63,681 nucleotides of DNA from an uncultured Bacilli bacterium (lineage in GTDB: Bacteria > Bacillota_I > Bacilli_A > RF39 > UBA660): NCBI GenBank assembly GCA_934130105.1, contig CAKOXL010000004.1:1-63681 (forward strand), given 5' to 3'. The notes under the pieces were generated by a model. That model had not been told where the DNA came from. It searched no databases and was given only the letters and a program-made list of their open reading frames with translations. The position numbers and the translations under genes are program-made. Positions 15,178 through 39,668 of the stretch are shown here, in pieces (the stretch's first letter is position 1; every line of letters begins with the position of its first letter).

Positions 15178-15210
15178 CTTCATTATTTACTTTAATTTAC
15201 AAAAACATAT

Positions 15211-16974: not shown

Positions 16975-17001
16975 ACTACTCCTTCTTTCTAAAAAATATT
17001 T

Positions 17002-17032
17002 AAAAAAAAGCAGCACAAAAAAATTGTACTGC
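17002..17032 (-). terminator. Intrinsic terminator between the TR spacer and the accessory genes
   Basis: Minus strand: GCAGTACA-ATTTTTT-TGTGCTGC (8-bp stem with one G-U pair) followed by T8. Confidence 0.55.
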
Positions 17033-17340: not shown

Positions 17341-17430
17341 GAAAAATGAGAAAAAAATACTACCTTTACAATCAAATCCCTACATTTGTACTATATATAT
17401 TTCAAAATTACAAATGCCATAATTTAAAGT

Positions 17431-17467
17431 CTCCCGATTTTTTTCAAAAAAGGGAAAAAATCGGGAG
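17431..17467. other. Perfect 13-bp-stem hairpin between VR and TR
   Basis: CTCCCGATTTTTT (17431-17443) pairs with AAAAAATCGGGAG (17455-17467) around an 11-nt loop. No canonical U-tract follows on either strand. Confidence 0.6.
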
Positions 17468-17542
17468 CCATAGAACTTACCGCAGTAAAAAATATGAAGA
17501 TAAAGATTTTATCATACTATCTACTACGGGGTTAATAGCACA

Positions 17543-19453
17543 TTACTGTGCTGGAGCGAGAACGACACGGAACGAAATGCTGGTGTACGTACCACCTGTG
17601 CTGAGGCTGAACGCAAAGGAACCGGCTTCAGTGCCATTGCTCCAATGGCCACCACGTACGAACCAAGGGTAAGAAGAATGAACAAAGTAGGCGTAATCTT
17701 TATACCAACTAGATTTATATCTAGTACTACCATCTGGATCTTTTTCACTACCAAATGGTCCCATCTCTCCTGTTGCATCTCCTAATATTCTGTTATTATA
17801 ATTTGTATTTACAGTTGATGCATATTTATTCCAGTACTTAGTGTAAGTACTATCACTAAAGAAATTAGGATATAAACTAGTTATACCACTTGATCCACCA
17901 ACTGTTGTTGCTTTAGTAGTATATCCCATTACATACTCCCATGCGCCACCTGACATATCATATATTCCACTATAATTACCAGTTGTTGATGAAACAGTAG
18001 AATTATTATTAAAATAATTAACGGTATATGTTCCATCAACACCTAAACTAGTTGACTCTACTCTATTACCTTCTATACTTATTCCGCTATTATATCCTAA
18101 GGTTGGTTCACTTGTTCCAGAATATCCGGTTATATAACTTGAGTTATTATTTATTCTTACACTTGCTTGACTACCATATACTGAATGCTGTAAATAAGCT
18201 ACTGCTCCCCATTCTGTATTTTTCATCATATGACTATCTAAATTACGATTATAATCATAACTATTCTTGAATGCGTTCCCAACAGTTATACTTCGCCAAC
18301 TATATACATTGGGTTTTATGATAATTTTACTTGTATCTACACTATTTACTTGGGCAGACGTCGTTGATGTTGCTCCATCATATCCTGTTTCAAACTTTCC
18401 TACCCATAAACCATTTGTATCAAAAGCTATGAATGCTGGATGAGTTAGATATGTTCCTACCGTACTTCCAGTAGATGGTGTTGTTTCTTTATTTTCAAAT
18501 ATAATATCTATTGTTTGAGTAGAATTTCCAATACTTGTTAGTCCTGTATATGTTCCTTCATTAAATATTTTATATCTATATCTTGGTATCCATACAAAGT
18601 ATGATTCAATATTTGTTTCTGGTATTACTTCTCCATCTTGGTAAGTAATACTTTCATCTTTTAAGATAACGCTATTAGCCCACTTTTTATCAGCATAACT
18701 ATACCAAGCTGTTGTAGTATCCGCTTTAGTTACTACTCCTGTATCTGATATTACTACTGGTATTAGATTATCAGATATAACTGGATATGCTCCATTTAAA
18801 ATGGCTTCTTTATAAGCTATTTTATCTTGCTCTAATACTTTACCTGTTGAATATACATTTACTGTTATCGTAAACGCTTTATTATTTATGCTTCCATCTG
18901 AAAAATCAGTATCATCTGATAACCACATTCTTAATCTAAAATTCTTTTCATAGTTTGATGTATTAGCTGATACTTCTCCTTCATAGATAGTCTTTTCTAT
19001 TACCCCATCCGGTACTTTAGTATTAGTTTGAATTAGATTTGAATATTTATCTAATAGTATTTCCTTTTCAGTTCCATCTACTTCAGTTAAGTATAACTTT
19101 ACGTCATCTTCATCTAAGGTAGAATCACTCTTTTTTCTTGCTGTTACTTCATATGAAATACTAGAGTTCATTTCTATTGTTGAGGTTATCTTAAAATCAA
19201 ATACCTTTCCTTCACCTGTTTGAAGTTTTCCTTCTTCATCACTTATTGGAAATGCATCAGTTAAACTTATACCTTTTCCTATTCCACTTACTTCAGTATA
19301 TAGAAAGTTTATCTTACCTGTTTTTACGATATTATCAGTTACACCTGTTTTAGAATAAGTGAATAGTGAATAACTTACTCCAACTGTTATCAATATTAAA
19401 CTTAATACTGCTATTAGTGTCAAAAATATCTGCTTCTTCTTACTATTTTTCAT
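17543..19453 (-). CDS. DGR target protein: N-terminally anchored or secreted, with a C-terminal FGE-sulfatase/C-type-lectin-like (CLec) domain carrying the VR
   Basis: Signal/TM sequence and a VSYSLFTYSKTG motif that may be a SipW/TasA-like signal. FGE-like GGAWEYVMG. The C-terminus RGGHWSNGTEAGSFAFSLSTGGTYTSISFRVVLA equals the VR. Confidence 0.9.
   Translation of the reverse strand: MKNSKKKQIFLTLIAVLSLILITVGVSYSLFTYSKTGVTDNIVKTGKINFLYTEVSGIGKGISLTDAFPISDEEGKLQTGEGKVFDFKITSTIEMNSSISYEVTARKKSDSTLDEDDVKLYLTEVDGTEKEILLDKYSNLIQTNTKVPDGVIEKTIYEGEVSANTSNYEKNFRLRMWLSDDTDFSDGSINNKAFTITVNVYSTGKVLEQDKIAYKEAILNGAYPVISDNLIPVVISDTGVVTKADTTTAWYSYADKKWANSVILKDESITYQDGEVIPETNIESYFVWIPRYRYKIFNEGTYTGLTSIGNSTQTIDIIFENKETTPSTGSTVGTYLTHPAFIAFDTNGLWVGKFETGYDGATSTTSAQVNSVDTSKIIIKPNVYSWRSITVGNAFKNSYDYNRNLDSHMMKNTEWGAVAYLQHSVYGSQASVRINNNSSYITGYSGTSEPTLGYNSGISIEGNRVESTSLGVDGTYTVNYFNNNSTVSSTTGNYSGIYDMSGGAWEYVMGYTTKATTVGGSSGITSLYPNFFSDSTYTKYWNKYASTVNTNYNNRILGDATGEMGPFGSEKDPDGSTRYKSSWYKDYAYFVHSSYPWFVRGGHWSNGTEAGSFAFSLSTGGTYTSISFRVVLAPAQ
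17554..17696 (-). repeat. DGR variable repeat (VR) with a GC-rich IMH-like 3' end
   Basis: See the TR entry. The 3' end on the coding strand, CCGTGTCGTTCTCGCTC, is identical in TR and VR; the flanks then diverge (VR CAGC, TR TTAG). Confidence 0.92.
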
Positions 19454-21722: not shown

Positions 21723-21830
21723 ATGCCAGGTTATGGTAATAATAGCTATAATCAAGGTTCTTGGTTATGGATAGTATTAATTATCTTTTTAGTACTTATT
21801 ATTTGTCCTAATAGAAAAAAAGAATGCTAA
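21723..21830 (+). CDS. 35-aa hydrophobic peptide (YjcZ-like small membrane peptide?)
   Basis: GGGAG RBS (agaagggagttgatatt), then ATG. Sequence MPGYGNNSYNQGSWLWIVLIIFLVLIICPNRKKEC, followed by a terminator. Confidence 0.3.
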   Translation: MPGYGNNSYNQGSWLWIVLIIFLVLIICPNRKKEC

Positions 21831-21836
21831 ATGACA

Positions 21837-21864
21837 AAACCAGTTATTTAAAAATAACTGGTTT
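21837..21864. terminator. Bidirectional intrinsic terminator (end of essC / small ORF)
   Basis: AAACCAGTTATT-loop-AATAACTGGTTT with T-runs following on both strands. Confidence 0.55.
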
Positions 21865-21868
21865 ATGT

Positions 21869-24800
21869 TTATTTTATATCAAATTCTTCAACATATTTAA
21901 CATAATCAACCCTACCACGCTTTACAACAAAGCAATAATTATTTGGGATTGTTTCTTTCATTTCTGGTATCTTTTGATTTATTTTAATAGAAAACTGATC
22001 GTTAATACCATTTCCTACCCAAATACCATAATTATTGGTAACACATTCTTTATACCAAGATTCAAACTCATTTTTCTTAATTTTATCAATACTATCTATT
22101 ATAATAAATTTAATTATTCCTAATTTATTAGCTTTTAAAAACATATTATTAAATTCATTTTTATTTTCATTATTTAATCCTAGTTTAAATTGATCAATAC
22201 CAATTATTAAGCATATTAATTTATTAATTTCTTTAGAATTATTATATGCTTCTTTACTGATTAAATAATTACTTAATTCTGTAAATATTAAATCAAAGTT
22301 AGAATCGACATATCTATAATCGCTTTTATTTTTTATATCATAATCAAGCGCATTTATAACTAGTAGAGTTTCATTTTTATATAGTATTTGGTTTATAAGA
22401 GGATTTACTAATGGTTCTGTTTGGTTTACATCATTTGCTGTTATAATAGAGACTGTATTTTTATTAAAGTCAAACTCATTTACTAATAAATCTTGCTTGT
22501 TTAAACCTATTATATAATTGTTAGTATTTAAATATTTTTCTATAACATTTCCATTAACAATTGTTGGAAGCATTGGTATCTTTGGTGCTGATGTAGTATT
22601 ATTGCTATACTCTAAACATTTTTCTTTAATAAATCTAGGGATATCATCCTTATCACTAACTAATGCTGTTTGAAATTCATAGACATCATCATCTTTAAAT
22701 ATTCCACGTCCAAATATTTTACTAGGATATGTTTTATGAACATTACCTAAAATAGTAGTAAAATCGTCATTATTATTTTGAGCTAGTGCATAAATTAAAC
22801 TAAAGTTTTGTTTTAGTTTAAATCTAACACCATTAGGTGTATTAGCTAAAACTATGAAATAGATGCCATATTTGTTACAATCTCTAGTAATACTATTTAA
22901 AATATCATCATATTTATTAGAAAGCTCCGTAAATGCCTCAAAATTATTTATAATAATTATCATTGATGGTACTTGGCTACCACTATTTCTACAGTAATTA
23001 TAATAATCACCATTATAATCCTGAAAAAGATTTTTTCTTTTATTAATGTTCGTTTCTATCATTTTAAATAAATTTTCTAGTTTGTCACTATCATCTGATG
23101 TAACAATATCACCAACAATAGTAGAATCTTTAAACATATTAAGTGCACCTGTACCATAGTCAACTATGTAATAATTTACTTCTTTAGCATTATAGTAAAG
23201 CATAGAAGAATATATTAAGGTTGTTATGAAGTTTTCTTTTCCGGAACCACTTGCACCATATATAATAGTATTGCCATTCTTGGATATTGGAAGTGTTAAA
23301 AGTTTTTGCTCTTGTCTTTTAGGTATATCATATTCACCAATTATTGGATTAATAACAAACATTTGCTTTTCATAATTATATTTAAGCGCTAAATCTTCTA
23401 TTTTTATCATATCAGGTATTTTTTCTAACCATAAAGGTGTTGTTATTACATTTAATTGATTTGCTTCATTTTGTAAATACTTGACAATGTTAACTAACTC
23501 CTCACCATTTGATTTAATGTTAGTTTCTTTCTTTTTCGTTTCAACATTTTTATAAATATACCCAATATTATTAATAAAATCGATATTAGTATCAATATTT
23601 TTTTTAGCTTTTTCACGTGGAATATATTTACCACCTGCCCAACTAGCTTGTCCTAAAACAAACACTTCATTGTAACCAACTTGAAAATAAAATCTACCCG
23701 TTTGTTTTAAATAAGCAGCATCAGGGCATTTTATAACTTCATTGGAATCCGATTTTTCTTGTACACGCATGCAAACTCTAAATCTAGTATTACTCCAAAT
23801 TTGAGGATCTACAACGCCACTTGGCTTTTGCGTTGCTAATATTAAATGAACTCCAAGTGATCTACCTATACGAGCTGTTGATATTAGTTGTTGCATAAAT
23901 TCTGGTTGTTGGCTTTTAAGTTCAGCAAACTCATCACTTATTATAAATAAATGGGATATAGGAATATCAACGATTTTATCTCTATACATTTTTTGATATT
24001 TATAAATGTCTATTGTACTTTCACCAGATAACTCCCTTGCTTTATTGAATAGAGTTTGCCTACGTTTAAGCTCTGATTCAATAGATGCTAAACTTCTTTT
24101 TATCTCATTGCTATCTAAGTTAGTAATTGTGCCAACTAAGTGTGGTAATTTTAAACCTGTTGTTTTATTTTCAAAAGCACCAGCTAAGCCACCACCTTTA
24201 TAATCTATTAATATAAATTGAACTTCATATGGATGGTAATTAATAGCCATAGATAGAATATAAGTAATAATAAATTCACTTTTACCACTACCCGTCGAAC
24301 CTGCTATTAAACCATGTGGGCCATGATATTTTTCATGCAAATCAATGCTAATTTTTTCTTGATTTTTTCCTAGACCAACTGGGGCTTGTAAACTTAGTAT
24401 TGGATTATTGTTTTGCCATCTATTAATAGAGTTTAATTGTTCAACTTTACCAACATCAAACATTTCTAAAAAGCCTAACTTATTAGGAAGTTTACCGTCT
24501 TTTGATGATTGAATTTCAATTGGAATATTAGCAAGTTTTTTTACAGTACTGTAGTAATCTAAAACTTGATTTATATCGTATTTAAACTTTAAAGGTTCAA
24601 TATAATATTGCCCAACGTGCATTTCTCCTGTACCATTGTTTAAAGTTATAAAAGCTTTACATTCACTTGGCAAATCCGTAATTTTCTTATCTATTATAAC
24701 CATAGAAAATCCCAAATTAACTTTAGATTTAACTATATTATTTATAAAATCGTAATTTCTGATTGCTTTATAGCTATCGGTTATAATTAAATAAGTTTCA

Positions 24801-26449
24801 GTTAATTCATCTCTTTTAATTTCTCTATTTAATTCTTTTCTTTGATTAAAGATTCTATCTAAATAGTAGCATACTTCTTTATATTCATCATTGTTAGTTG
24901 CATAAAAACGGATTTCTCTATCATTAGTAAATAAATGTGGCAAATCTTTTAAATAAGCGTAATCTTTTTCTTTTTCTGAATCGGTAAATATAACTATTTT
25001 TAAATTATCATAGCTTTGATTGGTGATACATTCTAAAATGATATTTTTTAAATATTTATTTGTTTCACTATAATTACCAATTAATCCAGTAACATAATTA
25101 TCATATAGAGAATAAATAATTGGAACATTTGAAAGTAATTTTGGTTCCGTACCTAGTGAATGTAACATATCTTTTAAATTATCTTGAAATAAAGAAAAAT
25201 GTTCTTCTGGATATTTAATATCTATTTTCATAGGATAGTTACCAATACCAAGTCTAATAACTAAATAATCATCGTCTTCTATTCTTCTTTGCCATAAAGT
25301 AGTATATTTGTTTAAAATAATTTCTTCGCATTCTTTTAATCCTGGGTAATTATTATTTAGTATTTCTGATTGCCTGTTTTTAGCATTTTTTATTTCTTGG
25401 CGTTTATCCTCAATATAAGCGCTGTATTTTTTTTGTCTTTCTTTTTCTTTCTTTTTTCTATTTCTTAATTCAACTTTTTTTGATATAGTCGGCCAAATAA
25501 GTACACTTGCAAACATAGCACCACACATAACAAGTGATGGAATAGCATTTTTGATACTTGAATTACCATTCATTATATTGTTAACAGAAGTATATGCTGA
25601 CACTAAAGATGTCATTGACATTGTTAGCATTGGTCCGATTGTTAAAAGAAGAGATGATTCTTTTTCTTCTGCTTTATTAGGTGGTGCATCAACATTTAAT
25701 GTTAATGTTTGAATTTTAGGAATGAATCTTGGTGTTTTATGGAAGTAATCTGATTCATCGTATAGTTGTATATCTTGTTCTTCTTGTTCCACTAACTCCT
25801 CATTTGATTGATTTTTGATATCAATAAGATTTGTTAATAATAAATTTGCCTGAACTTCTAAATTATTAGAATTATTTAAATATAGATAATATATGTCGCA
25901 TGCTTCATGCTTTTTTATGACATAAAGCATAATACCTTCAATAAAAACAATATCAGCATTTTTTAGTACCATTTTATTTACTAATCTCATATTGCTAACA
26001 TAAATTGGAACCTTACTATTATCATCAATGATAACTAAATCTTCATTTTCTTTTTTGATAGTTATATTAACTTCATTAAGAAGAGGCGAAGTTATTGAAC
26101 CTAATTGTCCTATCTTAAGTCCGGTTAAAATATAATTAGTTATATCATAGCAATTATATTTTTGAAAAACATTAGAGCAATATAAAATGATATTTTCATT
26201 AGTTTCTTTATTTTTTAAAAATATAAATTGGTTATCTATTAACACCTTAAATGGTTCTATAACACCATTATTTATAATATAGACATCATCATTACTAATT
26301 AAGTGCCAAGTATTATCAGTTGCTTCAATATTAATTAAATTTTTTCTATTACCAGCTTTATCCAAATCTGTTATCCAATAACTACCACTAATCTGTTCTG
26401 GTAATATTAAGTCTATTTTTTTATCTTTTTTTATAAGTGATACTCTCAT
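21869..26449 (-). CDS. essC: T7SSb FtsK/SpoIIIE-family ATPase EssC/YukB
   Basis: FHA-like N-terminus and two TM segments. D1 has an intact Walker A/B (GSTGSGKSE, IISDEFAEL, ATQKP). D2 has GASGSGKEN and a NNFE Walker B. D3 has no P-loop. Confidence 0.9.
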   Translation of the reverse strand: MRVSLIKKDKKIDLILPEQISGSYWITDLDKAGNRKNLINIEATDNTWHLISNDDVYIINNGVIEPFKVLIDNQFIFLKNKETNENIILYCSNVFQKYNCYDITNYILTGLKIGQLGSITSPLLNEVNITIKKENEDLVIIDDNSKVPIYVSNMRLVNKMVLKNADIVFIEGIMLYVIKKHEACDIYYLYLNNSNNLEVQANLLLTNLIDIKNQSNEELVEQEEQDIQLYDESDYFHKTPRFIPKIQTLTLNVDAPPNKAEEKESSLLLTIGPMLTMSMTSLVSAYTSVNNIMNGNSSIKNAIPSLVMCGAMFASVLIWPTISKKVELRNRKKKEKERQKKYSAYIEDKRQEIKNAKNRQSEILNNNYPGLKECEEIILNKYTTLWQRRIEDDDYLVIRLGIGNYPMKIDIKYPEEHFSLFQDNLKDMLHSLGTEPKLLSNVPIIYSLYDNYVTGLIGNYSETNKYLKNIILECITNQSYDNLKIVIFTDSEKEKDYAYLKDLPHLFTNDREIRFYATNNDEYKEVCYYLDRIFNQRKELNREIKRDELTETYLIITDSYKAIRNYDFINNIVKSKVNLGFSMVIIDKKITDLPSECKAFITLNNGTGEMHVGQYYIEPLKFKYDINQVLDYYSTVKKLANIPIEIQSSKDGKLPNKLGFLEMFDVGKVEQLNSINRWQNNNPILSLQAPVGLGKNQEKISIDLHEKYHGPHGLIAGSTGSGKSEFIITYILSMAINYHPYEVQFILIDYKGGGLAGAFENKTTGLKLPHLVGTITNLDSNEIKRSLASIESELKRRQTLFNKARELSGESTIDIYKYQKMYRDKIVDIPISHLFIISDEFAELKSQQPEFMQQLISTARIGRSLGVHLILATQKPSGVVDPQIWSNTRFRVCMRVQEKSDSNEVIKCPDAAYLKQTGRFYFQVGYNEVFVLGQASWAGGKYIPREKAKKNIDTNIDFINNIGYIYKNVETKKKETNIKSNGEELVNIVKYLQNEANQLNVITTPLWLEKIPDMIKIEDLALKYNYEKQMFVINPIIGEYDIPKRQEQKLLTLPISKNGNTIIYGASGSGKENFITTLIYSSMLYYNAKEVNYYIVDYGTGALNMFKDSTIVGDIVTSDDSDKLENLFKMIETNINKRKNLFQDYNGDYYNYCRNSGSQVPSMIIIINNFEAFTELSNKYDDILNSITRDCNKYGIYFIVLANTPNGVRFKLKQNFSLIYALAQNNNDDFTTILGNVHKTYPSKIFGRGIFKDDDVYEFQTALVSDKDDIPRFIKEKCLEYSNNTTSAPKIPMLPTIVNGNVIEKYLNTNNYIIGLNKQDLLVNEFDFNKNTVSIITANDVNQTEPLVNPLINQILYKNETLLVINALDYDIKNKSDYRYVDSNFDLIFTELSNYLISKEAYNNSKEINKLICLIIGIDQFKLGLNNENKNEFNNMFLKANKLGIIKFIIIDSIDKIKKNEFESWYKECVTNNYGIWVGNGINDQFSIKINQKIPEMKETIPNNYCFVVKRGRVDYVKYVEEFDIK

Positions 26450-26466
26450 AATATACCTCTTACATA

Positions 26467-26988
26467 TTAAATAAAATGGCTTTTATTATTAATATATATT
26501 CCAAATTTTAAAACAGCTATTTTCATATTTATTTTTTTAGATAGTTCATCTTGAATGTAGTTTAAAATGTCACATATGAAATTTTCTTGTTCTTCGGTAC
26601 AATCAAGACTATTATAGTGAAATGCTATAGCAATTGAATCATTTGGTGCAGCTTGTTCTTCCCTATCACCATATTCTATATATTTACTTTCTGTTTTAGC
26701 AAATAATAATTTAGAGATATTCTTATTTAAAAATGCATATAGTTCGCTAGTATTTCCTTTTTGGTAGTTTTGATAACTTGTTTTTAAGTAATCTAGTTCA
26801 TCTTGACTTAGATTCTCTAAATGAATGCCATTTAACAAGAAAAAATAATTTGATACTAATGAAATGCTAGTTGGATTTTCAATATTTTTTGATTTAATAC
26901 CTGCTTTTATTATTTGACTTTCTAAATTTTCTAGTCCTAAATTATTATATATACTATTAAAAATTATTAATTTTAAATGTTCTATCAT
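26467..26988 (-). CDS. Hypothetical 173-aa cytoplasmic protein (candidate immunity protein or chaperone for the upstream effector)
   Basis: AAGGAG RBS then ATG at 26988, directly after the effector stop at 27003. No TM segment and no recognisable motif. Confidence 0.55.
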   Translation of the reverse strand: MIEHLKLIIFNSIYNNLGLENLESQIIKAGIKSKNIENPTSISLVSNYFFLLNGIHLENLSQDELDYLKTSYQNYQKGNTSELYAFLNKNISKLLFAKTESKYIEYGDREEQAAPNDSIAIAFHYNSLDCTEEQENFICDILNYIQDELSKKINMKIAVLKFGIYINNKSHFI

Positions 26989-27002
26989 AAATAACTCCTT
27001 TT

Positions 27003-30000
27003 TTAATTCCAATGTATAGATGATGTTCCAATTCGAAAACAACCACCGTCAAATAAATCTTCAAATTTAATATAATATTTATTTCCCCATGAACTTATGA
27101 TAAATCCATAATCAGCTATACCTGTTATAGTAACAGAATGTCCTACTATACTTGGAGTTTCATTTCCCCTATCTTCATGCCAATCATTTGTAGAAATAGA
27201 ACGATAACTTTGAGGATCATAGGAATATGCAACTATTTGGTGAGTTGAATCTATTAATTTATAATAACCCATATCAAGTGCAATTTCATCATCATTTAAT
27301 ACCTTAGTCAATAAAGCTATTATTTGTTTTTGCTCTTCAATTGGATATTTAGTTGTATCAAAATTATCAATAAAGAAACTAGATTCATAACTCAACTTTT
27401 GATCTTTACTCTTTAAGAATTTATTTATTGTATCATCATCTCTTCCTTCACTTCCTGACATATATTTTTGTTTTTTTGCTTTCAATGTATCTCTTCCATA
27501 TATATCAATAGTTTCTGGACTAAAATATTCTTTATTTAATTCATACCCTCCATTAATATTTTTCTTTATAAAATGTCCACCATTTTCTTCACTATTTGCA
27601 AACACATATAAGTCTAATAATAATTCAGAAGAATTGAATTGTCCATTTTGTTTATACATATCATAACCAAATATTTTTTTAAAATAACCTTCCCTGTTCC
27701 TAAATAAATAATATATATTATTACATACACTTGCATATGAACAAGCACCAGCTGCATTTACAGTATCCATTATTACAGCAGAATCGTTAGATGTAAATCC
27801 CATGTTTATAAGCTTATTTTTTAAATAAGTATACTCTTGGGTACTTATTCTTTTAAAATGAGGAATAACTTCTCCATTTTGCTTTGCTTCTTTAATCATA
27901 CTTATAGCTGTACTATAATTATATTTTTTACCGTTTAATTCATAAACAGATAATTTTTCAATAGCCGCCTGGTCTACTCCGTAATCACCTTCTATATGAT
28001 CATTAAAGAAATTATATGTTTCAAGCCTTTTATCAGTAAAATCCAAATCTAGTAAATATTCTTGTATATACTCAGTTGGTATATCGGATATTTTTTGTTT
28101 TACATCATCAACTGCTATTTTATTAATATCATCAGTGCTAAAATACTCTTTTAATTGTTTAATTCCAACATTTTTTCCGAGTCTTTGGTCAATAAGATTA
28201 ACCAACGAATCTATGTCGCCATAGTAATTTCTGACATCGTTTGCATCTGAGTTAAATTCATGTTCGAATAATTTTAATTCTCTATGAATTTGTAGCATTT
28301 CTAAATCTTGAATGGTATAGGATGGATTCTGATTATTTTTCATTTTTGTTATAAAATCTTGATATTCTTTTGTTTTTGAAATTTCTAATAAATCATTATA
28401 CCTTTCCATTTTTTCTTGAACTGTATTTATTTTTTCTTTTTTTGCATTTGTAATATTTAATTTAGATCCAATAGCATCAAAAAAGTTATATTTATATCCG
28501 GCAATACCATTTTCACTTTTTGTTTTAAATCCCGATAAAGTTAGTTCATTTAAATCATGCGTACTAACTTCAATAATACCCGTATTCTCATGGTATGCAA
28601 AATATTTATATGTACCATCTTCTTGTTTAATTGAAGTAATATTTATTAATTCTACTTTTCCATTTGATTTTAATCTATATAAATCGGTTCCACTTATAAT
28701 ATCTGATTCTGTTGCAGATAAACTTTTAACAAGAGACAATATATAAGATTTTGCTTCTACATATCCTAATTTTGATAAATCAGCTACTTCATTTAGTTTT
28801 AATAATTTACTCTCAACTAAATTAGATAAATTATCACTGGAAACATCAGTATTTGCTATGTTAGAGCGAACTGTATCTAAAACATTATTATAACTTTTTT
28901 TAATATAGTTTAAACCTTTATCAATTTCTAAAAGTTCATTATAAAACGATTTTTGATCATCAAGATTTGCATTAAAAAATGGATATTTACCTGATTGTGC
29001 ATCTTCCAAAGTGGTAAATTTACTAATAGGATAAAACATATCTGTTTGTTCACCTTGTGATATTTTTGCTAAATCATTTAAATAAGAATTGTTTTTAGTT
29101 GCATCAGCTAGAAAATATTTCCCATCAACTTCAAATTCAACCCACGCATGATTTGCTGATTTTATTTCAGAATTAATTCCAACACTTAAAAGTAATTCAT
29201 TATAAATTTTAGACCAACTTTTGCATATAATCTTACCATTTAAAATAGAATTATCATTAATGTCTTTACTATCAGTTAATATTTTAAATCCAATATTTTC
29301 ATTCGGATTACTATTTAAATTTTCATCAAATCCTACTCTTTTAGATAATTCTAAATATAAAAATCTTGCTTTTTCAAAATCAGTTAAACCACTAGGAATT
29401 GACTCTATTATATTTTGTTTTAAATCTCCGACGGTTGTAATATTATCATTTTCATTTACTTTTTTAATCAAATCTGTATATTTTAAATTACGTAATTTTT
29501 GACTATTAATGTTTACGATATTCTTTATATTATCTTTAATACTAGTTAACTCTGATAAAATAGATGTTTTTATATTTAAGAATTTATTTTTTACATTAAG
29601 TACAAAATTTTTCAATCCAAGGTACTTAGGATTAATGTTTAAGTTTTTTGCTATATTTGATACTTTGCCGTTTATTGAATCATACATTGTCATTATTTCA
29701 TGATCTAGTAATGCCATTTCATTTTTAATTTTTAAAAATTCTGTTTCACTATCATATATTTCTATTGTGTTTTCTGAATTCAATTTTTCAATGAATGCTT
29801 TATATTCTGGGGTATTAGTTTTATCAACTAATTCTTTATATCTATCCATCTTTTCTTGTAATATTTTTTCTAAATCAATATTTGAATTTGATACTTGCTG
29901 TTTACCAGAATCAGTTATACTATTACTATTAAGTTTATCATTTATACTATTTATTTCATCACTAAGCAATGCTCTATATTCTGGTGTATCAAGTTCTTTT

Positions 30001-32753
30001 GGTAAATTGTTAAACAAATCAATTTTTTCTTGTAATATCTTTTCTAAATCGATATCTGAATTAGATATTTTTTGTTTACCAGAATCAGTTATACTATTAC
30101 TATTAAGTTTATCATTTATACTATTTATTTCATCACTAAGCAATCCTATTTCATTTTTAATCTTTAAAAATTCTGTTTCACTATCATATATTTCTATTGT
30201 GTTTTCTGAATTCAATTTTTCAATGAATGCTTTATATTCTGGGGTATTAGTTTTATCAACTAATTCTTTATACCTAGCCATTTTTTCTTGTAATATTTTT
30301 TCTAAATCAATATTTGAATCAACACTGTTAAAATCTTGTTCTTTTATTTTGATACCTGACTCATCCATTTTAGTTACATCAGAAATTAATTCGTCCATCT
30401 TATTTCCTATTACATTGGCCTTTTTATTCATAGCATCAAAATCAGTTAAATTATTATTAGATATAAAATCATTAAATGCATTTTCTAAATTATCATTATA
30501 ATCTTTTAAATTTATAGTATCTTTATTTACTGCACTTGCAAATTCAACTAATGTTCCCAGTTTAATACCTTTTTGTTTAAATTTAACTGCCGTTCCTGCT
30601 AAGGTGGCGGTAAAAGAAGCACCATTCATTAGCCCCGCTGTAACTGAACCTAATACACCACTATATAATGCTTCTTTGCTAGTTTCTGCTAAATCAATTT
30701 CATCACCAAAAAAAACATAATTAGAAAAAGCCTCAACATATGTTTGTGAAAATTCTTCAAGCCCTTCAGATACAATATGTCCAATTGCATTACCAGCACT
30801 TTTAGCAACAAGCTTTCCACACTGACTAATTGCCAATTTTGTTGCAATTGACTCACCTATATTTTCTGTTGCTCTACTTAAAATAGCTGATATACCAGTA
30901 CTTGATGCAATATGTTTAATACCACCCATAAAAACTTCTAAAGCAAAATCTGAAGTAGCTACTACCGTAGCATTGGCAATAGATGCTTTATAATCGTTTC
31001 CTGCAACTAAACTTTGGTTAGCTGTATTTCCAAATGAGCTAATAAGCATAGTTGCTTTTACACCAGCTTGAATTAAACTAGATGATCCGCCTGTCAAACA
31101 GCTAAGTATTACGGTAGGTGCCATATTACCAGTAGCTTGACCTACTTGATAATCGAAAGTTAAACCGCTTTTATTAGCTAAATAACTTCCTATATACATT
31201 TGAGTATATTGATTATCTGTTATTATTGGATTATCTTTATCCATTATAACTCTATAAGTGTTTTCAAATCCTTCTAAAAAGGATTCAACACCATCACCAA
31301 ATCCCTGTTTAAAGGTTGTTGCATATTTTGAAAAACCATCTTTAAAACTTATATCTAATGCATAACTACAACTGTTTAAGCTTCGTTCTATATCCGTTAT
31401 ATAATTGTCTGCTACTTCTTTACCATAAACTTTTTTTAAATTGCTGTAAGTATTGATTATAGAAATAACTGAATTTGATGAATCAGTTACCAAATATTTT
31501 TCATCTATAATATTATAAGCATTATATGCATCAATTAAATATTTATTTATTTCATTTAAAATTTCTAAATCTTCACTAGAAAACTTTTCGGTAATAGATG
31601 CTATTTTATTATTTTCATCTATATTAGATTCACTATATTCTTTAATAAAATCAGAAAAGGCATTTTGATCGGTTATTTTTGCCATATATGCATCTGCTTC
31701 TGCCTTACCTTTATTTTGATTTATCTGATCTTCATATGCCTTTAGCATATCTTTTACAGCTTTTTTACCTTGCGTTTTTGCTAAATACATAGCAAGGTAT
31801 TTCTCTTCATCCGATAAATATTGATAACTAGAAGCAATATCAGCATAACCACTTTTAAAGTATTTATAAAATTCTGTAACATCTGGTATTTTTTCACTTT
31901 CTTGATACTGATTAACAAATTCCAAGAAATCGCTACTTTGCATCATTTCCAAATATGGTTCTTGTTTTATTTCTTGCTTTGCAGCATATATTAATGCTTT
32001 ATTTGTAGCTATTTCTGTTTCATAATAATTCAATTCTATTAAATATTGCTTTAAATCAACATTTGTTTTATTTTTTTCTTTTGTCAATAGTTCACTAAAC
32101 CATTCGGGATTATCTTTTAAATAAGAAAATATCTCATCGTTTCCGAATATCCAATAGCCATCATTTGTATTATTAGGATCATTTTTAAATATTATAGCAG
32201 TAAGTTCATCATAATTATCTTCTATAAATTGATCCATACTGGATTGATATTTTTCTTCTAAAGCTGCTTTTGCTTCTATATATTGACTAATCAACGTTTC
32301 ACTTATATTTTTTTGCTCTTCGCCTGTTTTTTGCTCTTCATCTGTTTTTTGTTCAATATCATCCATTTGGCTGGCATTAAAGTTAGCAAACTGTTCAACA
32401 TTTAAGGTATCACTTTCTATGTTAAATAACTTGCTATCAATATAATTTCTTATATTATCATCATTGATATTACCTAATGATATATTTTTAGCAAGTACAT
32501 TTTCTATATTAATAGCTAATGCATAATAACTATCTAACCAGTCTATTATTTGTTTGTATGAATTATTAACATTTGAATATAGATCAGATAATTGTGATTC
32601 CATATTGCTTAAAAGAGATGAGTATGGATGATTTTTTAAATAACCATTAAGATAAGTTTGATATGTGCTATTAGAAAAGGTGGAATATTCATTTTTTAAC
32701 TGATTTAACTTGTCATTCAAGTTATTAAAGTCAACTTTATATATAACGCTCAA
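27003..32753 (-). CDS. Giant (1916 aa) LXG-like T7SS effector candidate with a Gly-rich hydrophobic region, tandem repeats, a transglutaminase-like Cys-protease core and a C-terminal papain-like domain
   Basis: TTG start with a GGAAAGGG RBS. Helical N-terminus with L35-N-G37. GKIICKSW...NHAWVEFEVDGKYFLADAT (Cys-His-Asp core). GACSYAS ... VGHSVTITG..SSWG (papain-like Cys/His). Confidence 0.65.
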   Translation of the reverse strand: MSVIYKVDFNNLNDKLNQLKNEYSTFSNSTYQTYLNGYLKNHPYSSLLSNMESQLSDLYSNVNNSYKQIIDWLDSYYALAINIENVLAKNISLGNINDDNIRNYIDSKLFNIESDTLNVEQFANFNASQMDDIEQKTDEEQKTGEEQKNISETLISQYIEAKAALEEKYQSSMDQFIEDNYDELTAIIFKNDPNNTNDGYWIFGNDEIFSYLKDNPEWFSELLTKEKNKTNVDLKQYLIELNYYETEIATNKALIYAAKQEIKQEPYLEMMQSSDFLEFVNQYQESEKIPDVTEFYKYFKSGYADIASSYQYLSDEEKYLAMYLAKTQGKKAVKDMLKAYEDQINQNKGKAEADAYMAKITDQNAFSDFIKEYSESNIDENNKIASITEKFSSEDLEILNEINKYLIDAYNAYNIIDEKYLVTDSSNSVISIINTYSNLKKVYGKEVADNYITDIERSLNSCSYALDISFKDGFSKYATTFKQGFGDGVESFLEGFENTYRVIMDKDNPIITDNQYTQMYIGSYLANKSGLTFDYQVGQATGNMAPTVILSCLTGGSSSLIQAGVKATMLISSFGNTANQSLVAGNDYKASIANATVVATSDFALEVFMGGIKHIASSTGISAILSRATENIGESIATKLAISQCGKLVAKSAGNAIGHIVSEGLEEFSQTYVEAFSNYVFFGDEIDLAETSKEALYSGVLGSVTAGLMNGASFTATLAGTAVKFKQKGIKLGTLVEFASAVNKDTINLKDYNDNLENAFNDFISNNNLTDFDAMNKKANVIGNKMDELISDVTKMDESGIKIKEQDFNSVDSNIDLEKILQEKMARYKELVDKTNTPEYKAFIEKLNSENTIEIYDSETEFLKIKNEIGLLSDEINSINDKLNSNSITDSGKQKISNSDIDLEKILQEKIDLFNNLPKELDTPEYRALLSDEINSINDKLNSNSITDSGKQQVSNSNIDLEKILQEKMDRYKELVDKTNTPEYKAFIEKLNSENTIEIYDSETEFLKIKNEMALLDHEIMTMYDSINGKVSNIAKNLNINPKYLGLKNFVLNVKNKFLNIKTSILSELTSIKDNIKNIVNINSQKLRNLKYTDLIKKVNENDNITTVGDLKQNIIESIPSGLTDFEKARFLYLELSKRVGFDENLNSNPNENIGFKILTDSKDINDNSILNGKIICKSWSKIYNELLLSVGINSEIKSANHAWVEFEVDGKYFLADATKNNSYLNDLAKISQGEQTDMFYPISKFTTLEDAQSGKYPFFNANLDDQKSFYNELLEIDKGLNYIKKSYNNVLDTVRSNIANTDVSSDNLSNLVESKLLKLNEVADLSKLGYVEAKSYILSLVKSLSATESDIISGTDLYRLKSNGKVELINITSIKQEDGTYKYFAYHENTGIIEVSTHDLNELTLSGFKTKSENGIAGYKYNFFDAIGSKLNITNAKKEKINTVQEKMERYNDLLEISKTKEYQDFITKMKNNQNPSYTIQDLEMLQIHRELKLFEHEFNSDANDVRNYYGDIDSLVNLIDQRLGKNVGIKQLKEYFSTDDINKIAVDDVKQKISDIPTEYIQEYLLDLDFTDKRLETYNFFNDHIEGDYGVDQAAIEKLSVYELNGKKYNYSTAISMIKEAKQNGEVIPHFKRISTQEYTYLKNKLINMGFTSNDSAVIMDTVNAAGACSYASVCNNIYYLFRNREGYFKKIFGYDMYKQNGQFNSSELLLDLYVFANSEENGGHFIKKNINGGYELNKEYFSPETIDIYGRDTLKAKKQKYMSGSEGRDDDTINKFLKSKDQKLSYESSFFIDNFDTTKYPIEEQKQIIALLTKVLNDDEIALDMGYYKLIDSTHQIVAYSYDPQSYRSISTNDWHEDRGNETPSIVGHSVTITGIADYGFIISSWGNKYYIKFEDLFDGGCFRIGTSSIHWN
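29717..30319. repeat. Intragenic near-identical DNA repeats: two about 172-bp copies (29717-29888 and 30148-30319) bracketing two identical 70-bp copies (29901-29970 and 30075-30144)
   Basis: Read directly from the sequence. They encode the repeated modules DLEKILQEK..TPEYKAFIEKLNSENTIEIYDSETEFLKIKNE and SDEINSINDKLNSNSITDSGKQ. Confidence 0.9.
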
Positions 32754-32775
32754 AACACTTCAACCCTTTCCTACT

Positions 32776-33282
32776 TTAAACAAAATTTATAATATTTCTT
32801 TCAATTTCTTCCATAGCCATTTTATTATTTTGTATTTCATTTTCTTTTGCATTTATTTTATTTTGTACATCATTATTTATTTTGGTTACTGTTCTACTTT
32901 TTTTAACTACTTTATTTATTGGTTCATCAAATGTTCCAACATTTTCCCAATCTTCATATTCTTCGGTAACTTCGTAATACAATTGTTTTTTTAATTCTAT
33001 TATTTCTTTAGTTAAGTTTTCATTATCTATACTATATTGTTGATAAGATTCTATTTTAGGTATTAATGTATATTTATAATCATTTAGTTTTGATTCTAAT
33101 TGTTCATAAATTTTTGTGAATTCTTCTAAACCATTTTTTATATTTTTTTTGCAATCATTTATCCAAAGGGATGAAGCCATAATCGAACTTGCTAGTTCTT
33201 TACTTGAACTTCTATTTATTTTGTTAAGGCAATCATTAATAGCTGTTTTTAAATATTCAACATTTATACTATTTAAATTCAT
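32776..33282 (-). CDS. Helical 168-aa protein, candidate LXG-effector partner or targeting factor
   Basis: All-helical, coiled-coil-like, lacks a WxG motif, and lies immediately upstream of the effector. Confidence 0.45.
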   Translation of the reverse strand: MNLNSINVEYLKTAINDCLNKINRSSSKELASSIMASSLWINDCKKNIKNGLEEFTKIYEQLESKLNDYKYTLIPKIESYQQYSIDNENLTKEIIELKKQLYYEVTEEYEDWENVGTFDEPINKVVKKSRTVTKINNDVQNKINAKENEIQNNKMAMEEIERNIINFV

Positions 33283-33284
33283 AT

Positions 33285-33605
33285 TTAATCAATCCTAGAC
33301 ACTTTGTAAAATATATTTGAAAACTTATCTTTAACTACTTTTTCTGTTTCTTGATAATGATTGTATGCATTTTGCATCTTTGAAGTTATATTTAAAATTT
33401 GATTATTTATTTCATCTATTTGGTTATGCATTTGATTTATATCTTTTGTATAGTTATCAGATACTATTCCACTCCATGCCGAATCTTTTTGTAATGATGT
33501 TCCAAATTGAACATAATTGTTCAAATTTTCATTCATTTCTTTATTTAGACTTTTTAGGTTATCTATACATGAATTGAGTTTTTGATAATCAACATTTAGT
33601 GCCAT
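33285..33605 (-). CDS. WXG100-like small helical protein (W-S-G)
   Basis: 106 aa with a central DSAWSG and a C-terminal YQETE (YxxxE). Confidence 0.55.
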   Translation of the reverse strand: MALNVDYQKLNSCIDNLKSLNKEMNENLNNYVQFGTSLQKDSAWSGIVSDNYTKDINQMHNQIDEINNQILNITSKMQNAYNHYQETEKVVKDKFSNIFYKVSRID

Positions 33606-33613
33606 AAGACCTC

Positions 33614-33907
33614 CTATATATTAATTTTTTTACTAGTATATATTTCATCTAATAAATCATATAAACCTGGAATATTTTTTAAATATATTTGATATTTTAA
33701 CATTTCAGAATATAGTGTATTTATGTTTTCGTTATAAAGTTTTTGCATATCATTTAGGCAATCATTGGCATCACTATTACCATTCCAAGCTTCTGCTATA
33801 TCATTAGCTATATCTAAAAAATGTGATATTTGATTTTTGAATTTTTCTACACACTCTAACATATTATTAGATGTATTTTTTATATCATCTTTATCAACAT
33901 TAACCAT
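33614..33907 (-). CDS. WXG100-like small helical protein (W-N-G)
   Basis: GAAGG RBS then ATG at 33907. Central EAWNG and C-terminal YDLLD (YxxxD). Confidence 0.55.
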   Translation of the reverse strand: MVNVDKDDIKNTSNNMLECVEKFKNQISHFLDIANDIAEAWNGNSDANDCLNDMQKLYNENINTLYSEMLKYQIYLKNIPGLYDLLDEIYTSKKINI

Positions 33908-33977
33908 ACTAAACCTTCTCTCACAAATAGATGGTATAAAACCATCCATTTGTCAAAGACTCTATTTCTAGAGACTT

Positions 33978-34274
33978 TTATTGGTTAAACACTTGATTAA
34001 CTTCTTGATCAACATTTCTATAATTAGAAACTGCTGTATTTATACTTTTTACATCGCCTTCAATTATAGAAACTACATCCAACAATCCTGTATATAATTG
34101 ATTAAGAGATTGTCTAGCTGTCTCTGCAGCATCTCCTCCCCAATCTTCACCATCCATTCCAATTTTTGAAAATAGATTTCTATTCATATCTTCTGTAATA
34201 TCTTTAATTTCTGTATTTAAACCATTCAATTTAGCAGCACATTCTTCTAGTTTAACATAATCTGTATCAATCAT
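33978..34274 (-). CDS. WXG100 family protein (W-G-G)
   Basis: 98 aa with a central GEDWGGDAA and C-terminal YRNVD (YxxxD). Confidence 0.8.
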   Translation of the reverse strand: MIDTDYVKLEECAAKLNGLNTEIKDITEDMNRNLFSKIGMDGEDWGGDAAETARQSLNQLYTGLLDVVSIIEGDVKSINTAVSNYRNVDQEVNQVFNQ

Positions 34275-34288
34275 ATTTTTCTCCTTTC

Positions 34289-34579
34289 TTATGCGACATA
34301 AGTACTATTTGCATTTTGAGCTTCCTCATAATCCTGTACAGCACTTTTCAATACATTACCTATTAATATTGCAGTTTGAAATAGGTTTTCGATTTCGTTG
34401 CATTGTTGTGTTAGTCTTTCAGAATAATTAGTTGCATCTTTTCCTGCCCAAGCTTCTTGGATTTCAGTATTAACATTTTCAACTTTTTTTATTAAGTCAA
34501 CTAAAGATTCTGATTTAGAAATTATTTGTGTCCCGATATTTGTTGCATTGTCTGATACATGTATACTTTTTGAATCCAT
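34289..34579 (-). CDS. WXG100 family protein, EsxA/YukE-like (W-A-G)
   Basis: 96 aa with a central EAWAGKDA and a helix-turn-helix hairpin layout. Confidence 0.8.
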   Translation of the reverse strand: MDSKSIHVSDNATNIGTQIISKSESLVDLIKKVENVNTEIQEAWAGKDATNYSERLTQQCNEIENLFQTAILIGNVLKSAVQDYEEAQNANSTYVA

Positions 34580-34591
34580 TATTCCACCTCC

Positions 34592-34843
34592 TTATATAAT
34601 TACAATTTTAGTTCCGTTTTGAATAGAAGAATCTTTAACCATAATACTATCATCAAAAATAATACCAGTTTCTTTATCAATAAATGTAACTTGTCCTTTT
34701 TGATCATATATACCATTTGATAATTGAACTAGTGATGATAAAACTGTTTTTTTTATCGTACCTATTTGTTTATTGATCGGAATATATGCGTCGAACTCCA
34801 TTTCTATACATGGAACTATAAAAGTAATCAAGTATTTATTCAT
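34592..34843 (-). CDS. esaB: EsaB/YukD ubiquitin-like T7SS protein
   Basis: 83 aa with a beta-grasp-like pattern ending in ...SSIQNGTKIVII. It is the first gene of the T7SS operon. Confidence 0.65.
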   Translation of the reverse strand: MNKYLITFIVPCIEMEFDAYIPINKQIGTIKKTVLSSLVQLSNGIYDQKGQVTFIDKETGIIFDDSIMVKDSSIQNGTKIVII

Positions 34844-34994: not shown

Positions 34995-35393
34995 ATGGAC
35001 TTTAAAAAAGAAGACGAAAACTACATTTATGGTGTCATTGGTAAAAATGTTAAGAAATACAGAAAAAAGAAAAATTTAACACAAGAACAATTAGCTAATC
35101 AAATAGATTATTCACTTTCTTTTGTATCTGGCTTAGAAAGTAAAAAGCACCAAACATTTTCACTTGGTGCTTTATGGCGTATATCATTAATATTGGGTAT
35201 TGATATGTACAAATTGTGTATTGATGATAATAATCAACCTCCTAAGTTTGTAACCTATAAATGTGACAGTTGTAATTATACTACTGATATACCATATAGC
35301 TTGCTTAATGATTTAATAAGAGATGATAAATATCCTATTTTTGATTGTTGCAAATGTAATTCTGTAATAAGAAAGTATGATAGTAAAAAATAA
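34995..35393 (+). CDS. XRE-family HTH regulator with a C-terminal Cys4 zinc-ribbon-like tail
   Basis: LTQEQLANQIDYSLSFVSGLE HTH motif, plus CDSC...CCKC. Confidence 0.8.
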   Translation: MDFKKEDENYIYGVIGKNVKKYRKKKNLTQEQLANQIDYSLSFVSGLESKKHQTFSLGALWRISLILGIDMYKLCIDDNNQPPKFVTYKCDSCNYTTDIPYSLLNDLIRDDKYPIFDCCKCNSVIRKYDSKK

Positions 35394-38484: not shown

Positions 38485-38741
38485 TTTATCCCTCTTTTCT
38501 AAAAATATTTTACCACATTTTTAACATTATTAGTAAATTATAGAATAAAAATATTTAAATTATTGGTGTAGAATTTAACTATTCAATAGCCACATATAAA
38601 TGCATAATTTATTATCTTCTATTACTTTAAATAGTGATAAAATTTAATACACTAGGATTTAAAAATTGGGTATCAAAGTCATTAATAATTATTAAATTAA
38701 TTATATTTGATATGTTATAATAACTACAACAGGTGATAAAA

Positions 38742-39668
38742 ATGGATTCTATAATAAAGAAGATAGACTTCTTTAGTAATGATGCTATCTTTGAAGCAAT
38801 AAATGACAGTAATTCTGGAGCAATTTTAAAAAAGGTAACAGACAATCAAAAAACATATTTTTTAAAAATTGTTCCAAAAGATAGTATAGATATAGATAAA
38901 ATTTTAAAGACAATAGAAATTTATAAAAATAATAATATTAACACAGTTCAACTATTATCATATGGGACTACCAAAGATAAAGTATATTTAATTTATAATT
39001 TTATTAATGGTAATGCACTTAATACAATTTATGATGAATATGATATGGCTAGTTATTATGATATTGGTCTTCAAATTGGAAATAGTTATAGAATAATAAA
39101 TTTTAACTGTAAACCAGATAACATTTTTAGGCAAGATTATAATATTGATGACTTGATAAATTCAATAACATCTAAATTCATTGATTTATATAATGGAAAA
39201 CTAGCATATTTAAAAGATATTATTGCGGAAGATAAAATAAAACTGTTAACAAATAAAATAAAAGAACTATTACCATGCTTTTATAATGAGGATAAAGTAT
39301 ATATTCATGCTGATATGCATCCTAAAAATATAATGATAGATAAGAATAATCAACTATATATTATTGATATTGAATCTTTTCATACTGATTACTTTGTTAT
39401 GAATTTTAGATGGTCTATTATGGCTTCTTTTAAAAATGATAAAAATAAAGCTTTCTTCAAAGGATTTATAGATGGCTACTATAATCATACAATAAGTGAT
39501 GATTTCGATAAACAATTAGTTATTATTTTAATAATTAATTTTATGGAACATATTATTAACTTTAGTGATGGTAAAAGCTTAGAATATATTAGGAATTATG
39601 CTACTAAAGTAAATGAGATATTTAACACTATTAATATTTATAGCAAAAATAATAAAATTACATTTTGA
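38742..39668 (+). CDS. Aminoglycoside/choline-kinase-like phosphotransferase (APH fold)
   Basis: IHADMHPKNIMID...IIDIE catalytic and Mg-binding motifs. An AGGTGA RBS precedes the ATG at 38742. Confidence 0.7.
   Translation: MDSIIKKIDFFSNDAIFEAINDSNSGAILKKVTDNQKTYFLKIVPKDSIDIDKILKTIEIYKNNNINTVQLLSYGTTKDKVYLIYNFINGNALNTIYDEYDMASYYDIGLQIGNSYRIINFNCKPDNIFRQDYNIDDLINSITSKFIDLYNGKLAYLKDIIAEDKIKLLTNKIKELLPCFYNEDKVYIHADMHPKNIMIDKNNQLYIIDIESFHTDYFVMNFRWSIMASFKNDKNKAFFKGFIDGYYNHTISDDFDKQLVIILIINFMEHIINFSDGKSLEYIRNYATKVNEIFNTINIYSKNNKITF

Follow-up and report, generated by a model that had tools for sequence, protein, structure and literature searches.

The window examined here comprises the 63,681 nucleotides of contig CAKOXL010000004.1 from an uncultured gut Bacilli bacterium (assembly GCA_934130105.1), has a G+C content of ~26%, and represents essentially the whole 63.7-kb contig. 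Its subject is a T7SS (type VII secretion system) operon, in which an EssC/EccC-type FtsK/SpoIIIE ATPase is encoded together with WXG100 proteins, the combination that generally defines such systems. The operon consists of nine close-packed minus-strand open reading frames (ORFs) that run from 34843 to 21869 and are separated by intergenic gaps of 2-28 nt. The first (34592..34843) encodes an 83-amino-acid (aa) EsaB/YukD/TsxB-like protein with a ubiquitin fold, as judged from AlphaFold2, Foldseek and synteny. Four genes for small WXG proteins follow, namely WXG protein 1 (96 aa, AWAG motif, 34289..34579), WXG100 protein 2 (98 aa, DWGG motif, 33978..34274), WXG-like protein 3 (97 aa, AWNG motif, 33614..33907) and WXG100 protein 4 (106 aa, AWSG motif, 33285..33605). 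A 168-aa protein without predicted transmembrane (TM) segment, h168 (32776..33282), then precedes the uninterrupted ORF of a 1916-aa modular polymorphic effector (27003..32753), a 173-aa candidate cognate immunity protein (26467..26988) and lastly EssC/TsxC itself (1526 aa, 21869..26449).

The locus is not an assembly artefact, since independent assemblies carry the same operon with an identical EssC. The ENA assembly ERZ27286920 yields the same nine gene calls (83, 96, 98, 97, 106, 168, 1916, 173 and 1526 aa), and the shorter Logan contig ERR7746365 covers the distal part of the operon, where the calls for the 173-aa gene and the 1526-aa EssC are the same. Gene order and sizes agree with the original prediction, made from the letters of this DNA without database searches. 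Two mechanical ORF calls differ from the genes given here: an ORF of 111 aa reaching up to 33949 is really 97 aa, as indicated by the independent assembly and by the related locus L001, and a "191 aa" ORF corresponds to the 173-aa gene at 26467-26988. The terminator proposed for the end of the operon was also recovered, in the form of a terminator-like 12-bp inverted repeat (21837..21864) directly after the essC stop codon. The T-tract of this hairpin is weak on the minus strand, and the region holds seven terminator-like sites where 2.5 are expected.

The EssC ATPase and the small machinery proteins

EssC matches the NCBIfam model TIGR03928 (T7_EssCb_Firm) over residues 233-1518 with 962.7 bits, against a cutoff of 778.4, and Pfam FtsK_SpoIIIE at 3e-43. 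Its closest solved structure is that of B. subtilis YukB (1e-116), and the EccCa and EccCb models match it below their own cutoffs. The protein is organized into two degenerate FHA domains, two TM helices, a D0 domain, an active D1 and degenerate D2 and D3 domains; its two helices are all of the TM helices predicted in the operon. Motif alignments uphold the earlier reading of the nucleotide-binding sites. D1 has an intact Walker A (GSTGSGKS) and a DEF Walker B, D2 reads GSGKEN at the P-loop and NNFE at Walker B, and D3 is devoid of a P-loop. Across 74 aligned EssCs, the D1 Walker A is invariant and the acidic pair (DE) of its Walker B is kept in every sequence, and the D2 Walker B is NN[FY]E-like in most. 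The D3 P-loop is missing from all 20 representative EssCs displayed, which come from both of the clades described below. Degeneracy of D2 and D3 is thus a lineage-wide trait and not particular to the window locus. Only the Lys-Glu of the D2 P-loop, present in the window lineage and in a Lachnospiraceae group, sets these apart from a T7SSe-like group, which reads GSGKTT. In the second FHA domain (FHA2), the phosphothreonine (pThr) motif is GR...S..H...SNGT in the clade with accessory genes versus GQ...N..N...SKVP in the window, and this decay of the pThr pocket accompanies the loss of phospho-regulatory genes.

The identification of the 83-aa protein as EsaB/YukD/TsxB-like is established by its predicted fold alone. 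The AlphaFold2 model (pLDDT 91.7) adopts a beta-grasp fold, and its top Foldseek matches are ubiquitin-like domains, including EccD5 of ESX-5 (7npt_D8 and 7np7_D2, TM-score 0.72-0.74). An EsaB-like homolog adjoins EssC in 68 of 81 loci, so that both fold and neighbourhood are in line with the esaB/yukD-like label first given to this gene. At the sequence level, no match was found in Pfam or NCBIfam, and the best hit of a 25-sequence profile among PDB sequences was the ubiquitin-like domain of ubiquilin, at an E-value of 0.69. A protein homology search returned seven relatives. The protein ends in -KIVII and has no C-terminal Gly-Gly.

The two clear WXG100 genes and two WXG-like genes of the original prediction are likewise borne out. 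Direct reading places a W-x-G motif in all four small proteins, and three match the WXG100 family. Proteins 2 and 4 score above the Pfam gathering threshold (5.8e-7 and 1e-6; TIGR03930, 2.9e-7 and 8.9e-7), and protein 1 matches more weakly (7e-4; TIGR03930, 2e-5). Protein 3 has no Pfam match and was placed through its membership of a WXG BLAST cluster. The four genes could not be assigned as orthologs to the T7SSe A1/A2 pair, BLAST scores being at most 22 bits. The next gene, h168, matches nothing in Pfam or NCBIfam and is conserved in 22 loci, always after the WXG genes. It is presumably helical, and it probably serves as a targeting partner or adaptor for the N-terminal domain of the effector.

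Missing partner genes and the clade of related loci

The original prediction held that EssA, EssB and EsaA were visible neither in the operon nor elsewhere in the 63-kb window. In a scan of 50 window ORFs against Pfam and of the operon against NCBIfam as well, no EssB/YukC, EsaA or EssA family member was detected, and EssB/YukC was also not found among the conserved neighbours in 80 related loci. The window contains no polytopic protein of ~1000 aa, the size of EsaA/YueB, and the intergenic gaps of 2-28 nt leave no room in the operon for an extra gene such as EssA/YueC. The soluble APH/kinase-like gene at 38733-39668 was considered as an EssB-like pseudokinase and rejected; its product has no TM segment, and it is not conserved in related loci. 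Loss of EsaA through lack of a cell wall was ruled out too, as genes for MreC, MreD and SpoIID, for an M23 peptidase and for a PASTA kinase are all present in the window.

Absence of these three proteins is expected outside T7SSb, because the non-b subtypes all lack them. Subtypes T7SSc-j were defined by Garrett, Higginson & Palmer in 2024 from RefSeq genomes, a survey that did not include metagenome-assembled genomes (MAGs); all are without EssA, EssB and EsaA, and most keep TsxA, TsxB and TsxC (PMC11217815). The description of the locus as T7SSb-like therefore stands insofar as EsaB and EssC are the sole recognisable machinery of a T7SS; T7SSb is too narrow a benchmark, and EssC groups with a T7SSe-like sister clade. 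The T7SSe accessory proteins were sought as well. The TseD kinase, the TseF PPM phosphatase and TseJ (DUF6382-FHA) were found neither in the operon nor in ~50 related loci. No signal-peptide Ig-like protein (TseI) or single-TM protein (TseH/TseK) occurs in the operon; such genes are present in the distant loci L051, L061 and L077.

A scan of species-representative genomes with EssC produced the 80 related loci, in which ORFs were called and clustered by BLASTP. The closest EssC relatives are 50-77% identical and nearly all labelled as MAG or uncultured. Their record titles read 'uncultured Bacilli', 'Tenericutes' or 'Mycoplasma sp.', and some other names are probably mis-binned. They include Candidatus Faecisoma merdavium (Mycoplasmatota incertae sedis at NCBI) and the complete 1.49-Mb chromosome OW818670.1 (locus L008). 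Record titles and isolate names trace these relatives to human, rabbit, mouse, goat and chicken guts. This comparison of synteny, which had been suggested as a check, identified as the sole widely conserved neighbours of EssC the EsaB-like protein (68 loci), WXG-like proteins (140 genes in 48 loci), h168 (22 loci) and DUF4176 (17 loci; Pfam 5e-29). In 15 loci, EsaB, the four WXG genes and h168 follow one another in this same order, ahead of effectors that differ. In the T7 gene sets of the close clade of ~50 genomes, every one of them labelled as MAG or uncultured, there is no recurrent TM protein and no conserved kinase, phosphatase, FHA partner or Ig-like protein.

Over the TM-D0-D1 region, the window EssC shares 31% identity with YukB (375 bits) and 43-47% (620-700 bits) with EssCs from the Lachnospiraceae group and from loci with a T7SSe gene set. 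A neighbour-joining (NJ) tree, rooted on YukB and built without bootstrap, separates 23 loci with accessory genes from 50 loci plus the window without them, so that the window clade is sister to, not within, the clade containing loci of T7SSe content; the subtype of that sister clade was judged by gene content. Kinases, FHA partners or a phosphatase of the PPM cluster are found in most of its 23 loci, and all have at least one accessory-type or lipase-effector gene. Exceptions in or near the 50-locus clade are L020 and the separately fetched L083, with short stand-alone kinase-domain genes of 236 aa and 254 aa (L083, 18999-19763, motifs HCDLK...N and DFG) a few genes from T7 effectors. These encode no TM segment, are not conserved in the clade and are unrelated to the APH/kinase-like gene of the window.

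The T7SSe layout is displayed by L051, L061 and L077, where genes for a DUF6382-FHA protein, a PPM-cluster protein, a kinase, a single-TM protein of ~170 aa and an Ig-like protein of 1740-2083 aa are followed by EssC, EsaB and two WXG genes. The PPM-cluster protein of these loci shares a BLAST cluster with the PP2C phosphatase of the window. The window locus resembles T7SSe in the N-terminal FHA domains of EssC, its identity over TM-D0-D1, the ubiquitin-like TsxB, the presence of more than one WXG100 gene, and toxin substrates with small helical partners; T7SSe-like EssCs also have a D2 without catalytic Walker B and a D3 without P-loop. It differs in the absence of the TseD kinase, TseF phosphatase, TseH/TseK, Ig-like TseI and TseJ, in the loss of the FHA2 pThr pocket, in the GSGKE rather than GSGKT P-loop of D2, and in having essC last, four WXG genes and the conserved 168-aa protein. 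With T7SSb (S. aureus Ess, B. subtilis Yuk), it shares an EssC that passes the TIGR03928 cutoff, FHA domains without pThr-binding residues, a separate EsaB/YukD-like protein, WXG100 proteins with LXG-style toxin-immunity logic and, in sister loci of the window, DUF4176. In contrast to T7SSb, no EssA, EssB/YukC or EsaA/YueB is found in the window, and its EssC branches with the T7SSe-like proteins. T7SSg of Acetivibrio and Paenibacillus has a similarly short parts list of two WXG proteins, TsgB and TsgC, but TsgC is without FHA domains, and a DUF5050 beta-propeller protein (TsgL) and adjacent Tad pilus genes are found there, neither of which occurs in the window.

Two further arrangements were observed among the related loci. 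A second layout in the close lineage (L009, L014, L019, L021, L024, L029, L031, L038, L052 and others) comprises genes for a 203-aa WXG-like protein, EsaB, a helical protein of ~130 aa, an effector of 340-473 aa, EssC and a conserved 347-aa protein. Its effectors match Phage_lysozyme2 in four scanned representatives (3e-26 to 6e-19), and the 347-aa protein downstream of EssC in these 'type B' loci has no Pfam or PDB sequence match. Lachnospiraceae loci (L049, L055, L058, L060, L063-L065, L067, L069, L072 and L078) share a recurring set of a LytTR regulator, EssC, EsaB, WXG genes, a lipoprotein of ~685 aa, a VWA-TM-FHA protein, PPM-cluster genes, a zinc-ribbon-like protein and two Ser/Thr kinases. 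This set could be matched to none of the T7SSc-j subtypes from the text of PMC11217815.

The missing partners could instead be encoded at a distant site, whether EssA, EssB and EsaA of the T7SSb type or the kinase, single-TM and Ig-like proteins of T7SSe. Such a split system is favoured by the clade-wide conservation of two FHA domains in EssC, and the window covers a single contig beyond which partner genes could sit. A PASTA kinase and a PP2C phosphatase lie in the window itself, ~18 kb from the operon on its esaB side and 26-33 kb from essC, and the kinase-domain genes of L083 and L020 stand near T7 genes. The window pair, however, is found between RlmN and RsgA, in an RlmN-PP2C-PrkC-RsgA arrangement that we take to be a Firmicutes housekeeping operon. 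The pThr-binding residues of FHA2 are lost, no such partner gene lies within 10 kb of EssC in ~50 genomes, contigs of 0.3-1.5 Mb included, and core genes are clustered in each described subtype (PMC11217815). Taken with the evidence on both sides, a split system is unlikely, though it is the likeliest of the alternatives.

The loss of accessory genes and the degeneration of D2, D3 and the FHA pockets might also be read as the marks of a decaying, non-functional relic of a fuller T7SS. This is scarcely credible. None of the nine ORFs is broken, including the long ones of 1526 and 1916 aa, the D1 motifs persist throughout the aligned EssCs, 15 species-level genomes share the module order, effector diversification resembles that of active toxin systems, and the D3 P-loop is absent from functional-looking T7SSe-like EssCs as well. 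Conservation of D1 in 74 of 74 EssCs and of module order in 15 loci, together with recurrence of the operon in independent assemblies, suggests from sequence that the system is functional.

The mosaic effector, its candidate immunity protein and neighbouring elements

The 1916-aa protein is a mosaic, and comparison of the loci matched its different segments to different effectors of neighbouring loci. No Pfam or NCBIfam domain was detected in it, seven related giants likewise gave nothing meaningful, and a protein homology search for half of the effector returned three relatives. One public source calls only the C-terminal 988 aa (P0008), but the full ORF of 1916 aa runs without interruption, and L001 conserves its N-terminus. 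Residues 1 to ~135 are 27-34% identical to the N-termini of 10 otherwise different proteins of 136-1724 aa, and also match aa 28-109 of L008_14. These shared N-termini delimit a domain of ~110-135 aa (32349..32753), which may serve in targeting, with an LXG/WXG-like role. The LXG domain itself (PF04740) was not matched in the effector at E<0.1 in Pfam. As in LXG toxins of T7SSb with their Lap/WXG-like partners, a large toxin has a conserved helical domain at its N-terminus, small helical proteins are encoded ahead of it and an immunity gene lies behind it, and C-terminal toxin modules are swapped between loci. The window effector differs from these toxins in its lack of a Pfam LXG match, its unusual size, its internal hydrophobic module and its two putative Cys-hydrolase modules outside any Pfam model.

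The hydrophobic module, famX (aa 531-721, 30591..31163), is a Gly/Ala/Ser-rich segment delimited with an iterated hidden Markov model, which found it in six effectors only; it is also present in the P0009 family. It corresponds to the long hydrophobic Gly-rich segment noticed in the original prediction. The composition is as described, but hydrophobicity is moderate, with a mean Kyte-Doolittle hydropathy of 0.4-0.55 and no 19-aa window that reaches 1.6. The surrounding residues 433-750 match five other large effectors only. A second hydrophobic Gly/Ala-rich module with a [KR]GTE.AW motif, famY, occurs in 11 effectors (L002, L003, L004, L006, L016, L020, L022, L025, L034, L037 and L041), and the two are unrelated (hhalign probability 0.4%). 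The famY effectors of L003, L022 and L041 gave no Pfam match over the module. A DUF4176 gene lies just upstream of all 11 famY effectors (with one gene between in L034) versus one of the six famX effectors; DUF4176 and famY may represent the pairing of a chaperone with a hydrophobic segment.

These modules bear on the suggestion that part of the giant protein substitutes for the missing membrane components, its Gly-rich segment inserting into the producer membrane in place of EssB or EsaA. In many effectors of the clade, the targeting domain is indeed closely followed by a hydrophobic module rich in Gly and Ala, and none was seen in T7SSe-like loci. Yet famX and famY are not homologous and vary in position, famX has no stretch at the TM threshold, and the protein that contains it is a mosaic toxin with an immunity gene as its partner. 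The ~400-aa lysozyme-type effectors of the second layout, and likewise others such as L007 and the 442-aa genes of L008, have no TM-like or hydrophobic segment. Because famX is confined to six effectors, an unrelated module occupies 11 others and the lysozyme-type effectors have none, the hydrophobic module is a feature of the cargo, perhaps for membrane entry, and not of the machine. Replacement of machinery by cargo is accordingly most improbable.

Further along the protein, a repeat of ~73 aa is present twice (aa 812-884 and 956-1028, 84% identical). Residues 1092-1256 (28986..29480), common to the effectors of L022 and L073, contain a candidate transglutaminase-like core (C1177, H1202 and D1217) recognised solely as a motif in the sequence (GKIICKSW...NHAWVEF...LADAT). 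The C-terminal toxin domain (aa 1549-1916, 27006..28109) is a candidate papain-like Cys hydrolase, with C1671 and H1872 invariant in four homologs. Neither segment matches Pfam, or the PDB in phmmer searches. Residues 1500-1915 match the effector of L001 and residues 1668-1900 that of L041, and a separate protein search showed that aa 1549-1914 share 37-40% identity with the C-terminus of the P0009 family (1233-1236 aa). The AlphaFold2 model of this domain, built from four sequences, is poor (pLDDT 58), with a topology that fits a papain-like fold. Its top 18 Foldseek matches are almost all Cys-His(-Asp) hydrolase-type or papain-like, at a TM-score of ~0.2 and E-values of 4e-3 to 5e-2, and include CtaG, PcJOS DUB, PeiR, Lpg2622 and a C39-like protein. 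The motifs AGACSYA and GHSVTITG...SSWG tentatively recall papain-family enzymes.

No TM segment is predicted in the 173-aa protein. It shares 28% identity, at an E-value of 4e-16, with the product of a 186-aa gene that follows the P0009 effector, which has the same C-terminal domain, and it is also paired with the L001 ortholog of the effector. Because its homolog co-occurs with the same effector C-terminal domain, the gene behaves as an immunity gene, and its product is a candidate cytoplasmic cognate immunity protein.

Several elements surround the operon. A gene for an XRE-family helix-turn-helix (HTH) protein (34995-35393, plus strand; HTH_3 2.9e-9) lies upstream and divergent from it, and may encode a local regulator. 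The C-terminus of this protein is Cys-rich and zinc-ribbon-like (CDSC...CCKC), and a related 80-aa gene is found in the flank of L001. At the other end, a 35-aa ORF (21723-21830, plus strand) with one hydrophobic helix (MPGYGNNSYNQGSWLWIVLIIFLVLIICPNRKKEC) is convergent to essC and was called in two independent assemblies.

A diversity-generating retroelement (DGR) occupies 14225-19453, just beyond the operon. It comprises a reverse transcriptase (15211-16242, RVT_1 7.6e-17), a bAvd-like protein (16227-16586, 6.8e-20), a MutS-domain-I protein (16579-17016), and a template repeat (TR, 17198-17338) and variable repeat (VR, 17554-17694) of 141 nt each. TR and VR differ at 12 positions, all 12 of which are A in the coding strand of the TR. 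The VR forms the 3′ end of a gene for a 636-aa protein (17543-19453) that has no Pfam match. A paralog of this target, of 518 aa (49033-50589), is found in the region 48688-50589 and is followed by a 71-aa ORF. The latter holds a VR-like copy (48731-48827) that is 83.5% identical to the TR, with 16 mismatches, and may be a second or decayed DGR target.

A reduced secretion system as the proposed reading

Taken as a whole, the locus is probably a complete toxin-export operon of a reduced T7SS variant that has only the A, B and C components and exports polymorphic toxins. The variant would be sister to T7SSe-like systems, and would have lost, or never had, the kinase, PPM phosphatase, DUF6382-FHA, single-TM and Ig-like proteins. 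Among the three explanations first offered for the missing genes, a reduced apparatus is the best supported. What appears to be new is a large clade of uncultured lineages whose T7 loci, apart from A, B, C and small helical proteins, have no accessory component; literature searches for RF39 or MAG-based T7SS surveys turned up no account of such an arrangement.

In the proposed mechanism, the N-terminal helical domain of the effector would bind h168 together with some WXG-like proteins and so create a composite export signal, by analogy with the LXG-Lap complexes of T7SSb. An EssC hexamer with EsaB bound, as the ubiquitin-like domain of EccD binds EccC in ESX-5, would then recognise this complex. 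ATP hydrolysis at D1, the sole catalytically intact site, would drive export through a channel formed by the TM helices of EssC itself. The cargo would be a mosaic toxin that combines a hydrophobic module and a repeat region with a transglutaminase-like module and, at the C-terminus, a papain-like Cys/His domain; the 173-aa protein may neutralise this toxin in the cytoplasm of the producer.

Several points weigh against this reading. EssC FHA domains bind EssB in T7SSb, and retention of both in the window EssC hints at some remaining partner. As the window is one whole contig, partner genes could lie elsewhere in the genome. The tree that separates the two clades is unbootstrapped, and the subtype of the sister clade is drawn from gene content and not from reference TseC sequences. 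The toxin-domain assignments are weak, given the low model confidence, the marginal Foldseek E-values and the lack of sequence-family matches, and the system is known here from genes and predicted structures alone. Finally, in each described subtype from T7SSa to T7SSj, A, B and C are joined by at least one further component (PMC11217815).

A stronger form of the proposal, for which the case is tentative and rather short of even, is that ~50 species-level genomes of uncultured gut Bacilli/Mycoplasmatota-like bacteria run a T7SS with EssC as its sole membrane protein. Were the partner genes encoded elsewhere, this would be an ordinary split system, and interest would shrink to the new effector families. 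If the stronger form is true, the EssC hexamer alone would be both motor and channel of an A/B/C-only 'minimal T7SS', and the hydrophobic modules that large effectors bring with them, with DUF4176 as chaperone in the famY class, would serve for entry into target membranes. Which parts of the Gram-positive T7SS form the channel, and which are regulatory or envelope-spanning, is still unsettled, and a system naturally pared down to a single membrane ATPase with an intact D1 site, a ubiquitin-like protein and WXG proteins, with an ordinary toxin-immunity cargo, would offer the simplest target for structural studies and for reconstitution. The finding would also extend the T7SSc-j catalogue, compiled from RefSeq isolates, into abundant uncultured gut lineages, and bring to light large unannotated effector modules outside any Pfam model.

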